A DNA stretch of 36,882 bases from Asterionella formosa. Its lineage: Eukaryota. The notes under the pieces were generated by a model. That model saw only the letters and a program-made list of their open reading frames with translations. It was not told where the DNA came from and made no database searches. Numbering within the stretch: the stretch's first letter is position 1; each line of letters begins with the position of its first letter. The position numbers and the translations under genes are program-made. The stretch is from positions 1 through 36,882 of the forward strand of contig NKIB01015265.1 of NCBI GenBank assembly GCA_002256025.1, written 5' to 3'. This document shows positions 30,420-36,510 of this stretch, piece by piece.

Positions 30420-31210
30420 TCCTCAGACATTCCCCTTGTACTTGCACTGACAATATCCTCTGATTTAACATGAGTTCCTGTGAGAGACATATGTAGTAAT
30501 GAAGAATACATGTTGAGTTAATTTCCTACATCTTGTTTATGAAATGATGAAAAAGAATTCATTAGCAGTGATGCAAGTAGAACAAGAGAATAATGTTGCA
30601 ACTTTCAATGCAGTAGCTTTGGGAAACAGATCGAAATGCAACAACAGGAACAACAGCTAATGCTGCAGGAGGAGAAACAGAAAATGCAAGCAGAAGATGA
30701 GGAGAAACTGAAAATATAACAACAGGAACCACTGCAAATAAGAAAGAAAGAAAAAATTTGACAAAGTGACTCCAGCATCTATTCTCAGCCGAGCTGTCAG
30801 TCTTACTAAACTCAAGATTAGGAAAGAAAAAGAGATTTCTGGAACATGCAGATTTTCTCTTGAAAAAGTCAATAGAGTTTGCAAGGCAGAACAGGGCAAC
30901 GCTCTATACAATAATATTTCGGGACAACAAGGTTCCAGGGGAAAACAGGGACGAAGCAAAAGTTTGGAAGGCCTCAGGAAAGAGATTCCAATGGCAAACA
31001 CAGTTACCAGTGGATTATAATGGGTGACATGAGAAAAATAGGATCCCGAAAAGAGGTTTTGCAATCAGAGTTACTATCAAACTTTTTATTTTGAAAATTC
31101 TCATAGGAGAGAGTGACCATCAACTTTCACTACCCCACCACCTTATATGGCCCATGGAGCGCAATGACGAAGAATCTAGAGGTGATGCGCTATAAAAATG
31201 ATTGACAAAT
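30420..31210 (+). pseudogene. Decayed coding remnant of unknown (possibly transposon) origin
   Basis: Purine-rich, coiled-coil-like frame (KQIEMQQQEQQLMLQEEKQKMQAEDEEKLK*...) broken by stops and continuing into ORF 30766-31020. No recognisable domain. Confidence 0.3.
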
Positions 31211-33537: not shown

Positions 33538-36510
33538 TTAAATAGCAGTGTTAAGAGCCACCATTTGCGTGGTATCCAGCAATAGGAGGTTACTTTGATT
33601 CTCGATGAAAGCAAGAGTGTACTTGTTACTGTCGCTGATCGTCCTCAATTCATCGTGTCGTGTTTGAACCGCTTTGTGCATGGCGCGCAGTGCCCTCATA
33701 AATGGTCCTCGTGACTTGTCAATAGCCATGCCATGCGTTTGAAGCAGTTCCAAGCACCAATGCAAATAAAACTCAACATGTGGGGATTCCGACATAGCTT
33801 TGGAAACAAACTGAAGGAGTCGTTCAAGATGCTCGGGTCCAATCGCTCTGACAACATGTGGAATAGTTGCAAAAGGCGTATCCTCGAGTACTTCCTTGAC
33901 CAAGGCAGACTCATTCAAATGCAAAGCCATCCGAAGGGCAGTACTGCAGTCCCCGGAAGCAAATTTAGCCTGGATAGTCGATGGGGTAATCTCTTCTGTC
34001 AAGGAGATCGGGTCAAACATCATGTCTTCATCTAATGAGTAAACATGGAGACCCTCACCAGACACGGCAGCCCATTCTCGGCCAGTTGAAGAAAAGGCAA
34101 CTTGTTGAGTGAGAACTTCAACTCGACTTTTGCGAGTACCATCATCGCCTCGCCGTGCTCCAGGCAAATTCAAAGCGTTGTATGTAGTTTCGTCTTCCGA
34201 ATCGGCCTCCTCATCAACAGGACCTCCACCAGCGAGGTTTTTGGAGTTGAGCTGTAAACGAGATGAAGGAATGAATAAAGTTAGGACGTGGTCAGCAATA
34301 CCAGCTATCTCAGGCAAAAAAAATTAGGGTGTGTTGCGCTCGGACATCCAAGGAAGTTAATTTCGCTCCATTGGGAATTAACCCGTCGGCGTTTCTGCGA
34401 ACGTTTATGGGAAAGTCATCATCATCGCACAAACCACACCATACAAGCAGCAAAAAACATAAATAAGGCTTTTACTCACCTCATCTAGTACTCCATCCAG
34501 CGATCGATTGAACGTGACTTGAAACTTCTTCAGAAGCATCTGTTGACTGACTTCGTATATACATACGTACTTCGAATTTCCTCCAGCCAAAACACAGCAT
34601 CCATCAGCAGAATAACAAACCGAGGTGAAGTATCGCGATGAAGCATTGTTGTCTGACGTCATCCGGTCGTTTATTTTCCTTCCTCCTGCAATGTCGCGTC
34701 GACCATCAATTTCAAACTTGAGCTTTGCACTCTCGACATCCCAGAAACTCAGTAGACCACCAATAGTTCCCGAGCAGACTTCTTTTCCATCAGGTCGAAA
34801 AGCCACACATACAACGTCAGAGGTGTGTTGCACACTCTCGGTCGCGATGTTTCCCTTGTAGAGATCCCAGAACTTGACCGTGCCATCCCAAGAAGCAGAA
34901 GCAAGACAGCCGCCACTGAGCTGGAAAGTGAGGTCGCAAACAGGGCCTTCATGTCCAGTCATAACATCGAGGAGTTTTCCAGTTTGAAGATTCCAAATGT
35001 ATATGTGAAAAGGACCAGCTGACCCAGCAGCGACAATCTCTCCACTCGGATCGACTGCCAAGCTCAAGAATTGAACAGGTGTTGGTGTCGTTAGAGTTTT
35101 AAAGGTACGGTAACGGTGCAGGTCATGAGCTCGAACAGTACCATCTAGGCTAGAGCTGAGGACGACACTTGAGTTTGCGAATCTGACAGCAGTAACTGGT
35201 GCTGTGTGAGACTGCTCCATGGTGACATAACAAAATCCACTGGTTGCATTCCATAGTTTCAATTTGCCGTCTTCACCACCAGTACATACAACTACACCAT
35301 CTGGAGAATACGCCATGGCTCGCATACCGTAAGCATGCCCACGCTGTTTAAGCACGTAAGTTTCAGATCTCCATTCCCAAACCAAGAGTTGCTGCGAACC
35401 AGGGCAACCCAGAGCAAGCCAATCTCCTGTGTCATTCAAAACAGCAGTTTTTATAACTTGATTGGATCCAACTGATAGAGTATGGATATTAGCAACGGAT
35501 GGAAGTTCGTAGAGACCGAAGAGACCCGAAGAAAAACCCACAACGAGAAGTTCTGCTTTTGCACAATATGATGTTGCTGTCACGTTGGCCCCTTCTTGAT
35601 GAAAATAATGGCGTGATCTTAGTGACCACGTCATCTTAACAAGATGATGGGCTTGGTTATCAGTATCATTATGAGCAGCTACAGCAATCGAGTTGTGAAG
35701 AGGACCACCCGAGAAAAACTCGAGAACATCATCAATTTTGGCTTCACTGTCGCCATCGGCATCTGGAAGGTCAACGTCGTCGTCGTCACTGTGTCGGCAC
35801 TGCCAGGTAACGAGTGCCCCATCTTCGCTAATGGTGTAACAAGAGTCAATTACTCTCCTGTTCTTTTCCATTTTCTGCGTGAAGTACGCACCGACGATGG
35901 GAGTCTTGTGTCCACTGAGAGTGACGGGCAGGTAGTTTCTGGTTGTTGTAACAGTCCATAAGCGGCAAGTACCATCACGGCTACCAGCGAGTAGGACAGT
36001 CGAGTCTGAGCTCCAATGAAGGGAAGTAACATCATCGGACTGGCCAGTGTAGGTTCTGTGTAGGACAAGGGGTGCGAACTCCTTTCGCATCTGACTCGGT
36101 GTGTGCCAGACCTGTACATGCTTTCCATGTGTTACAGCTAAGTAGCTACCGTCTGGACTAAATAGAACTTGTCTGACCTTTCTCTTGAATCTAAAGCGAT
36201 GCAGAACAATTCCTCGGTGAAAGTTGACCAGTAAAGCGTAGTTTTGAATGTCAACAACCAACAAAAGGGCATCATCGGGTGAAAGTGCCAGGCATCGAAT
36301 ATTGGATCTGGCCTCAATGGGAAGAGTTCTTACGGAATGAGCCTGGAGATCAATAACTTGTACACGATTAGAAACCGCGGAAATCAACGTGTTTCCCGAA
36401 GAAGAATACACAAGGTTTGCGCCACTTCCTTTCCCTGCCTGTGTTGCAGTTGAGTTCGGGTGTCCGTAGTAGGCACCGCAAAGTCGTTGGAGCTTGTAAT
36501 TGAACTTCAT
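33538..36510 (-). CDS. PWP2: Periodic tryptophan protein 2 (PWP2/Utp1), SSU processome WD40 protein; intron 34252-34479
   Basis: MKFNYKLQRLCGAYY start; QLLVWEWRSETYVLKQRGH; GTVRAHDLHRYRTFKT; IDGRRDI; the splice gives SLDGVLDE|LNSKNL; C-terminal Utp12-like HVEFYL.W domain. Confidence 0.96.
34335..34431 (-). ncRNA. U14: U14 (SNORD14-like) box C/D snoRNA, intronic in PWP2
   Basis: On the minus strand: terminal stem TGTGC/GCGCA; box C ATGATGA (34425-34419); domain A ACGTTCGCAG (34404-34395); internal hairpin GTTAATT..AATTAAC; domain B CTTCCTTGGATGT (34356-34344) directly before box D variant CCGA (34343-34340). Confidence 0.9.

Follow-up and report, generated by a model that had tools for sequence, protein, structure and literature searches.

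Genes for U14 (SNORD14), a box C/D small nucleolar RNA (snoRNA), are hosted in vertebrates (SNORD14A-E) by introns of HSPA8/hsc70 and RPS13, and yeast U14 (snR128) is not intronic and is co-transcribed with snR190. The placement of a snoRNA within a ribosome-biogenesis gene is a familiar kind of arrangement, examples being human NOP56, NOP58 and NCL, and yeast NOG2 with snR191; to our knowledge, none of these examples couples U14 with a UTP-B subunit. Yeast U14 is described in PMC9196750 as one of three snoRNAs essential for 18S, being required for the A0, A1 and A2 cleavages, where one of its regions guides methylation in helix 14 (C414) and another binds 18S helix 6; on depletion of Dbp4, U14 accumulates on 90S particles purified via Pwp2-TAP (PMC9196750). 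According to PMC3511168, U14 guides 18S methylation at Cm414 (yeast), Cm462 (human) and Cm416 (Arabidopsis). The present analysis concerns a contig of Asterionella formosa (NCBI GenBank assembly GCA_002256025.1, contig NKIB01015265.1, positions 1 to 36,882 of the forward strand; this whole stretch of 36,882 nucleotides (nt) is called the window), which very probably encodes a U14-type box C/D snoRNA of a pennate diatom, in sense orientation, within the only intron of PWP2/Utp1, a UTP-B component of the 90S pre-ribosome.

The diatom U14 resembles that of vertebrates in being intronic, sense to its host and present once per intron, with copies in successive introns, and in containing boxes C and D together with domains A and B. 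It is unlike vertebrate U14 in its host, since PWP2 is a 90S scaffold protein, whereas the vertebrate hosts encode a chaperone or a ribosomal protein; its domain A is also shorter, and it has UUCCCAUAAAC as a conserved spacer, a module composed of D', a hairpin and UGGAGC, and a CCGA box that is probably tolerated. Yeast U14 carries a yeast-specific Y domain, which the U14 of the window lacks. As in the NOP56, NOP58, NCL and NOG2 hosts, a single transcript gives a nucleolar RNA and a ribosome-assembly protein, the supplies of which are thereby linked. Other protist U14s recovered in the metagenome scan described below belong to the same family by pattern and by the Rfam model RF00016, and several of them are intronic, but their hosts differ (IMP dehydrogenase, IMPDH; the chaperonin CCT).

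Searches of the full-text literature, whose coverage leaves out subscription journals and supplementary tables, retrieved no publication in which a diatom U14 is described or U14 is located in PWP2, and PWP2 was not named there as a snoRNA host. Term look-ups in PMC3511168, PMC12309372, PMC4247016, PMC4156623 and PMC3675471 gave no mention of U14 in PWP2 or of diatom U14. These results agree with the first-pass annotation of this DNA, which was made from the letters alone and knew of no description of the arrangement, and the pairing of U14 with PWP2, together with its depth in diatoms, appears to be new.

Host gene and intron

PWP2/Utp1 is located on the minus strand of the window, with exon 1 at 36510..34480, exon 2 at 34251..33541 and one intron between them:

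34480..36510, minus strand: PWP2/Utp1 exon 1, 677 codons in an open frame, ATG at 36510
33538..34251, minus strand: PWP2 exon 2, 237 codons plus the stop (33540-33538), carrying the Utp12 domain
34252..34479, minus strand: PWP2 intron ("intron B"), 228 nt, GTGAGT...TTTACAG, GT..AG, phase 0
34280..34285, minus strand: putative branch site CCUAAC, 29 nt from the 3' splice site and 53 nt past the snoRNA, read by hand

The frame of exon 1 ends in LDGVLDE and is directly followed by the donor GTGAGT. Exon 1 contains tandem WD40 propeller families of Pfam, and exon 2 contains PF04003 (Utp12, E 1.3e-24). When compared with Protein Data Bank (PDB) sequences by phmmer, exon 1 matches human PWP2 (7mq8_LO, E 1.1e-171), yeast Utp1 (5wlc_LO, E 1.4e-164) and Chaetomium Pwp2 (E about 1e-164), with TBL3 as the next UTP-type protein at an E-value of only 5.6e-29. 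The protein is thus nearer to PWP2 than to the other WD proteins of UTP-B and has both the WD40 propellers and the C-terminal Utp12 domain of PWP2/Utp1, so that the host named in the first-pass annotation stands. Exon 2 matches PWP2 chains only (E 7e-39 to 1e-30), and the junction is seamless, as residue 676 of exon 1 aligns with residue 628 of yeast Pwp2 and residue 1 of exon 2 with residue 630. Because exon 2 matches PWP2 chains and resumes where exon 1 stops, the host is taken to be PWP2 and the intron model to be correct. A protein atlas query returned generic WD40 clusters only. The sequence CCUAAC is the probable branch site of the intron, and CTAAC or CTCAC, which resemble it, are present in the orthologous introns.

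A search for sequencing runs retrieved 20 runs, 18 of them recorded as RNA and most of them lake and freshwater metatranscriptomes; six contain at least half of the sampled words, and four of these (X1, X4, X5 and X6) were analysed, all as contigs. The joint 34251->34480, which skips 228 bases with ends CT..AC, occurs in contigs of three of the four runs, namely X1 and X4 (study P1) and X5 (study P2), while X6 shows no spliced joint and its contigs pass straight through the intron. The 228-nt intron proposed earlier is therefore spliced as predicted in RNA contigs. The depths of the intron-holding unitig and the junction unitig are 117 and 1452, 28.8 and 1080, and 8.95 and 7.2, values that offer a weak hint only, as contig depth is flat. 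The snoRNA is intron-encoded in that it lies in sense orientation inside a truly spliced intron, where the diatom covariance model R1 (see below) has a single match.

Elements of the snoRNA

The snoRNA and its elements are listed from the 5' to the 3' end of the RNA:

34334..34432, minus strand: U14 box C/D snoRNA, stem to stem, 99 nt, sense to PWP2, matched by RF00016 and R1
34427..34432, minus strand: 5' arm of the terminal stem, UUGUGC, paired with 34334-34339 by five Watson-Crick pairs and one G-U pair
34419..34425, minus strand: box C, AUGAUGA, aligned to box C of RF00016 and R1
34395..34403, minus strand: domain A, CGUUCGCAG, 9 nt, complementary to 18S helix 6, aligned to CAUUCGCAG of RF00016
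34386..34389, minus strand: D'-like box, CCGA, in an alignment column that reads CUGA or CCGA in relatives
34373..34384, minus strand: internal hairpin GGG / UUAAUU / CCC between D' and C', arms 34384-34382 and 34375-34373
34365..34370, minus strand: C'-like element, UGGAGC, with TGG and the following G invariant, and the intervening A nearly so, in 20 relatives
34344..34356, minus strand: domain B, CUUCCUUGGAUGU, 13/13 identical to the RF00016 consensus, abutting box D
34340..34343, minus strand: box D, spelled CCGA (consensus CUGA), with its position and GA core right
34334..34339, minus strand: 3' arm of the terminal stem, GCGCAA, closing the stem of six base pairs (bp)

All U14 elements are present in the right order and spacing, and everything that the earlier reading had reported in the intron was located there, i.e., a sense-orientation box C, both 18S-complementary elements, a D-like box and a closing stem. 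In the order of elements after box C, UUCCCAUAAA precedes domain A (CGUUCGCAG). Domain A contains a single A-to-G change relative to the consensus, which preserves a G-U pair with the target in 18S helix 6. The same variant occurs in two metagenome loci (L090 and L135), and other variants are wobble-compatible as well, such as GUUCGCAG in relatives and GUUUGCAG, which is deduced from PINVC tails of read-through proteins. Domain B has a 13-nt complementarity that abuts box D and places the target C at the fifth position, as judged with the universal 18S target (PMC3511168).

Read by hand, the ends of the RNA adopt the layout of a kink-turn, with the 6-bp stem, a 3-nt bulge (G34426-A34425-U34424) on the box C strand, and then GA/GA; the geometry applied is that known for box C/D kink-turns. 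With CCGA, this geometry keeps the GA of the sheared pairs and has U-C in place of the usual kink-turn U-U pair. Among 125 unique U14 cores from metagenomes, box D reads CUGA in 112, CCGA in 7, CUUA in 4, AUGA in 1 and CUGC in 1, where the CCGA carriers include the PWP2-hosted pennate orthologue L019 and one copy of L045; the intron-B copy of L057 likewise reads CCGA. At D', CCGA is common. We take CCGA to be a probably tolerated natural variant of box D.

In mammals, intronic snoRNAs are placed about 70-80 nt upstream of the 3' splice site, a rule that may extend to diatoms. In the window this distance is 82 nt, which fits the mammalian rule, as does CCUAAC at 53 nt after the snoRNA; five orthologous introns show 60-106 nt.

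Covariance models

When positions 34150-34600 were searched at E-value thresholds, RF00016 (SNORD14) matched 34430..34336 over the full model (1-111) with 39.0 bits (E 1.1e-6), while the remaining six Rfam matches in these 451 bases (E up to 10) have E-values of 4.1-9.7 and a best score of 15.9 bits. The model R1 was built from 20 diatom-type U14s with the window left out; in a scan of the window with filters off, it matched 34434..34330 with 103.6 bits (E 5.6e-24), which is inside the range of its relatives (84-118 bits). The covariance check with the U14/SNORD14 model suggested earlier has thus yielded a significant match, though one below the gathering cut-off, and both models identify the RNA as a U14/SNORD14 homologue. 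The single-sequence fold has a minimum free energy (MFE) of -26.8 kcal/mol (z -0.77 against shuffles) and fails to reproduce the C/D architecture; box C/D snoRNAs commonly fold poorly when one sequence is folded on its own.

The lack of a gathering-level Rfam match and an MFE no better than that of shuffles are what would be expected if an ordinary long intron merely contained U14-like words by chance. Such an intron would hardly give E-values of 1.1e-6 with RF00016 and 5.6e-24 with R1, nor would its orthologues conserve exactly the snoRNA segment with stems that covary (see below), and chance resemblance, which is next to impossible, is refuted by the R1 score, the intron conservation and the stem covariation.

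The second-best R1 match in the 36.9-kb window (31155-31196, plus strand; 16.1 bits, E 0.068) covers 42 nt, in which a GCGC/GCGC stem encloses AUGACGAAGA; this length is insufficient for a snoRNA, and the match is probably due to chance.

U14 in PWP2 introns of related diatoms

Metagenomes were scanned with a pattern consisting of box C, UUCGCAG and domain B in this order, which gave at least 142 stretches, and 141 loci (L-numbers) were analysed with flanks of up to 2000 nt for about the first 80 and 300 nt for the rest. As detected by tblastn with the exons of the window, PWP2 exons lie beside U14 in 9 of the 141 loci, among the matches listed, on nine contigs (L019, L066, L032, L077, L090, L124, L057, L092 and L119); relaxing tblastn to E-values up to 1 added no PWP2 locus among the 141 loci, again among the matches listed. 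Position B, the intron site of the window, holds U14 in L019, L066, L090, L119, L032, L077 and L057. Position A is a second intron of phase 1 in the codon of G610 (DIAGG, followed by RK), which holds U14 in L032, L077, L124, L092 and L057; the PWP2 of the window is without an intron at this position. U14 is present in both introns of L032, L077 and L057, where the B copy of L057 has the box C UGACGAUGA, and was hence missed by the scan pattern, and a poor terminal stem.

The six B introns with both ends available (window included) are all GT..AG and 184-284 nt long; the snoRNA is separated from their 5' splice site by 27-76 nt and from their 3' splice site by 60-106 nt. Their alignment contains 50 invariant columns, 46 of which fall within the snoRNA (intron positions 56-143), and the remainder of the intron fails to align across the six. 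Conservation in orthologous introns had been proposed as a check on the first-pass annotation, and the PWP2 introns of relatives conserve the snoRNA strongly. Selection acts on the snoRNA, not on the rest of the intron. As judged from these sequences, the same U14 type is encoded in PWP2 introns of many other diatoms.

The structure was examined in an alignment of 20 of the 23 diatom-type sequences, from which L005, L071 and L131 were omitted as more divergent and the window was omitted on purpose. Pairing across the terminal stem and internal hairpin reaches 81.1% in these relatives, versus 63.2 +/- 2.4 in shuffled alignments (0 of 500 shuffles reach the observed value) and 19.6-51.1% in slid controls, with both-side changes at 10/10 pairs of the two stems; the terminal helix alone is 82.5% paired, with both-side changes at 6/6 pairs. 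The internal helix occurs as GGG/CCC, UCA/UGA, UGC/GCA, UUGC/GCAA and CGUCG/CGACG among the relatives. In the model-fitted alignment, 83.1% are paired, a value in which the structure is favoured by construction. The scan pattern placed no constraint on the spacer UUCCCAUAAAC, on box D, on UGGAGC or on either helix.

Hosts were placed with 14 named PWP2 proteins, a small reference set that makes the placements approximate. The named PWP2 proteins closest to that of the window are from Seminavis robusta (75% identity), Nitzschia (70-71%), Cylindrotheca (70%) and Fistulifera (69%), with Chaetoceros at 63%. L019, L066, L090 and L119 are nearest to pennates, as is the window (raphid pennates). For L077, L057 and L092 the nearest protein is that of Leptocylindrus danicus (66% identity with L077, which has about 50% with pennates), and for L124 and L032 Chaetoceros gives the highest scores. 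Within this small sample, only centric-like contigs have an A intron with U14, the pennate-like contigs having the B copy only. The distribution suggests that the linkage of U14 to PWP2 predates the split of the sampled diatom lineages.

The paired copies are located at L032:1991-2094 and 2404-2507, L077:1991-2093 and 2372-2475, and L057:1987-2087 and 1566-1666. The A and B copies within one genome are 96.9%, 86.7% and 83.2% identical (L032, L077 and L057, respectively), versus 65-79% for copies at the same position in different genomes. Because the copies within a genome are more alike, they point to gene conversion or repeated duplication between introns A and B.

Read-through PWP2 proteins

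Evidence independent of the DNA pattern of the scan is provided by database proteins. A protein search with exon 1 retrieved 179 proteins (P-numbers), of which 142 match the end of exon 1; 59 of these continue into exon 2 and 83 read through. Many database PWP2 proteins of 680-790 residues consist of exon 1 and a read-through into intron B, and 82 of the 83 tails begin with V, as a GTN donor requires. Translated U14 motifs (e.g., AMMMNFP-stop, DDELPINVRS and INFLGCLS) are contained in 18 of the 83 tails, 17 being recognised by a scripted test and P0092 by eye; one of them is the protein of the window itself.

The NCBI record periodic tryptophan protein 2 of Fistulifera solaris (P0075, 688 residues) ends in VMMMNFP-stop and looks truncated, without the Utp12 exon, because its tail translates the GT donor, intron sequence and the region of the U14 box C. 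The same truncation is seen in dozens of PWP2 proteins called from metagenomes (680-790 residues).

At position A, 26 database proteins stop just past DIxGG; a U14 motif is reached by P0121 alone (97% identity with L077), and the other tails indicate no more than the presence of an intron. Around residue 610, P0066, P0069, P0074, P0079, P0080, P0106 and P0119 share 80-92% identity with the window, and they stop after DIAGG; since they stop right there, an intron at position A exists in close pennate relatives, and the A intron as such is more widespread than the U14-bearing contigs show.

Points against the assignment and the possibility of decay

Several observations weigh against the assignment of a U14 snoRNA to the PWP2 intron. 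Rfam at gathering thresholds gave no match in the whole window, the 39.0 bits of RF00016 being below the cut-off of 64, which is a rule for annotation rather than a property of the RNA. Box D and D' are both CCGA rather than CUGA, and domain A measures only 9 nt, includes one G-U pair and has no counterpart to UUUCCAC, by which the Rfam consensus is extended. That UGAUGA, UUCGCAG and domain B do not vary across the loci was imposed by the scan pattern and is therefore not independent evidence. The RNA data consist of contigs, with depth flat across the whole intron. Among the read-through tails, 66 of 83 are without the scripted signature and, save P0092, have no motif, although the motif-less tails are mostly too short to reach the snoRNA (median 11.5 residues) and thus uninformative either way. 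A strain variant seen in X5/X6 differs at eight sites of the intron outside the snoRNA (34290, 34302, 34305, 34313, 34316, where one base is missing, 34323, 34442 and 34462) and at a sole site within it (34360, in the linker before domain B), but this contrast of 8 differences in 133 non-snoRNA intron bases with 1 in 95 snoRNA bases has a one-sided Fisher p of 0.055, which is suggestive and not significant alone. Further, this organism may have another, possibly canonical, U14 copy elsewhere.

The Rfam score is best understood by comparison. The 18 diatom-type matches tested with RF00016 score 37.7-59.9 bits, all below 64, and three HSP70-hosted copies score 60.6-65.5 bits, two of them just over the cut-off and one under it. 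Because every diatom-type relative tested also fails, the sub-threshold score of the window is regarded as a property of the Rfam model, and the gathering-level null is not counted against the finding, since the cut-off fails the diatom-type relatives and one of the three HSP70-hosted copies.

The spelling of box D and D', both of which deviate from CUGA, is also a ground for considering a decaying or non-functional copy, in which the CCGA boxes fail in snoRNP (small nucleolar ribonucleoprotein) assembly while a working U14 is encoded elsewhere in the genome. The 39 bits of the window are the second lowest of 25 SNORD14 matches (37.7-66.2 bits for the 24 in loci), and decay does occur in the family, as shown by the intron-B U14 of L057, whose box C is weakened to UGACGAUGA and whose terminal stem is poor. 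In the window, however, all other elements are intact and the layout of the kink-turn is matched exactly, with a stem of 6 bp, a bulge of 3 nt and GA/GA, CCGA as box D recurs in 7 of the 125 unique cores in independent lineages, including the pennate orthologue L019, and the R1 score of 103.6 bits is within the 84-118 bits of the relatives. Moreover, no part of the intron but the snoRNA is conserved, and the snoRNA carries one of the nine strain differences. Decay is thus a very unlikely explanation.

Proposed maturation and function

By analogy with known box C/D snoRNAs, box C (AUGAUGA) and box D (CCGA), joined by the 6-bp terminal stem, would form a kink-turn, which would recruit Snu13, Nop56, Nop58 and fibrillarin, either while in the pre-mRNA or once the lariat has been excised. 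Debranching, followed by exonucleolytic trimming to the stem, would then give an snoRNP with an RNA of about 95-99 nt. In the nucleolus, domain B is predicted to pair with 18S such that the target C (yeast C414/human C462), five nucleotides from box D, would be 2'-O-methylated, the cytidine in question being expected within ACAUCCAAGGAAG, while domain A would pair with 18S helix 6 and support the early cleavages. As each U14 molecule costs one PWP2 transcript, the supply of U14 would be tied to PWP2 transcription; the co-expression of PWP2 and U14 from one transcript, as put forward in the first-pass annotation, follows from the gene anatomy. We infer that U14 and PWP2 may be functionally coupled beyond the shared transcript.

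Other hosts and a possible role in cis

Diatom-type U14 also occurs as tandem pairs without PWP2 nearby (L045, L094, L125, L130 and L135), whose flanking frames contain no Pfam family and no PWP2 (tblastn E up to 1). In L043, three U14 copies lie between exons of HSP70, and this locus, which reproduces the classical animal arrangement, acts as a control for the method. Because U14 sits in other hosts and in tandem pairs outside PWP2, its pairing with PWP2 is not obligatory.

Further observations from the scan and the RNA runs are as follows. L053 contains two U14 copies in an IMP dehydrogenase intron (L053:1437-1528 and 1635-1726), and L071 contains one copy between exons of a TCP-1/CCT chaperonin gene (L071:1538-1655). 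A tandemly repeated U14 type with the box D CUUA, which accounts for all four CUUA cores of the 125, is present in L067-L069, L086-L088, L024 and L052. A low-depth RNA contig (2.5-2.9) from two lake metatranscriptome studies (X4 record 8 and X5 record 13) matches only 34337-34370 of the window (34 bases, two mismatches) and is divergent on both sides; as its flank, in U14 sense, shows UUUGCAG, CUGA and a GAGCUC/GAGCUC hairpin, it is another diatom-type U14, of another organism or locus. Elsewhere in the window, overlapping same-strand pieces of open reading frames are consistent with short introns, as far as can be read from a list of such frames with splice sites undefined.

The element might also, or even chiefly, act in cis, where snoRNP assembly on the intron would modulate the splicing or mRNA output of PWP2 and feed the availability of U14 and its core proteins back to UTP-B production. 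Diatoms ranging from pennates to Leptocylindrus-like and Chaetoceros-like forms have kept the linkage at two fixed intron positions, the distance of the snoRNA from the 3' splice site is steady, and the intron unitig has 8.1% of the spliced-junction depth in a cDNA library versus 2.7% in a polyA library of the same study, a weak hint only. However, the linkage could persist simply because the loss of the intron would be the loss of an essential RNA, U14 resides in unrelated hosts elsewhere (HSP70 in L043, IMPDH in L053 and CCT in L071), and the same U14 type exists in tandem pairs outside PWP2 (L045). A cis role is therefore considered unlikely.

Implications

The analysis provides diatom U14 with a model that detects it, whereas the Rfam cut-off misses the whole diatom type, and adds PWP2, a host gene not found in print, whose product belongs to the same 90S particle as U14. 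CCGA recurs as a natural spelling of box D. An annotation error is flagged as well, as gene callers read through the PWP2 intron and truncate the protein at about 680-790 residues, one named NCBI record included. The locus and its relatives form a clean case for snoRNA host switching, with PWP2 as the host in diatoms and HSP70, IMPDH and CCT genes as hosts elsewhere in the scan. It is conceivable, though the chance is small, that the linkage is no passive association but a selected dosage or feedback device of diatoms, in which U14 snoRNP assembly on one or two fixed introns of PWP2 senses the availability of the core proteins and sets the amount of UTP-B scaffold; if true, this would explain both the survival of the pairing since before the pennate/centric split and the likeness of the two intronic copies within a genome.

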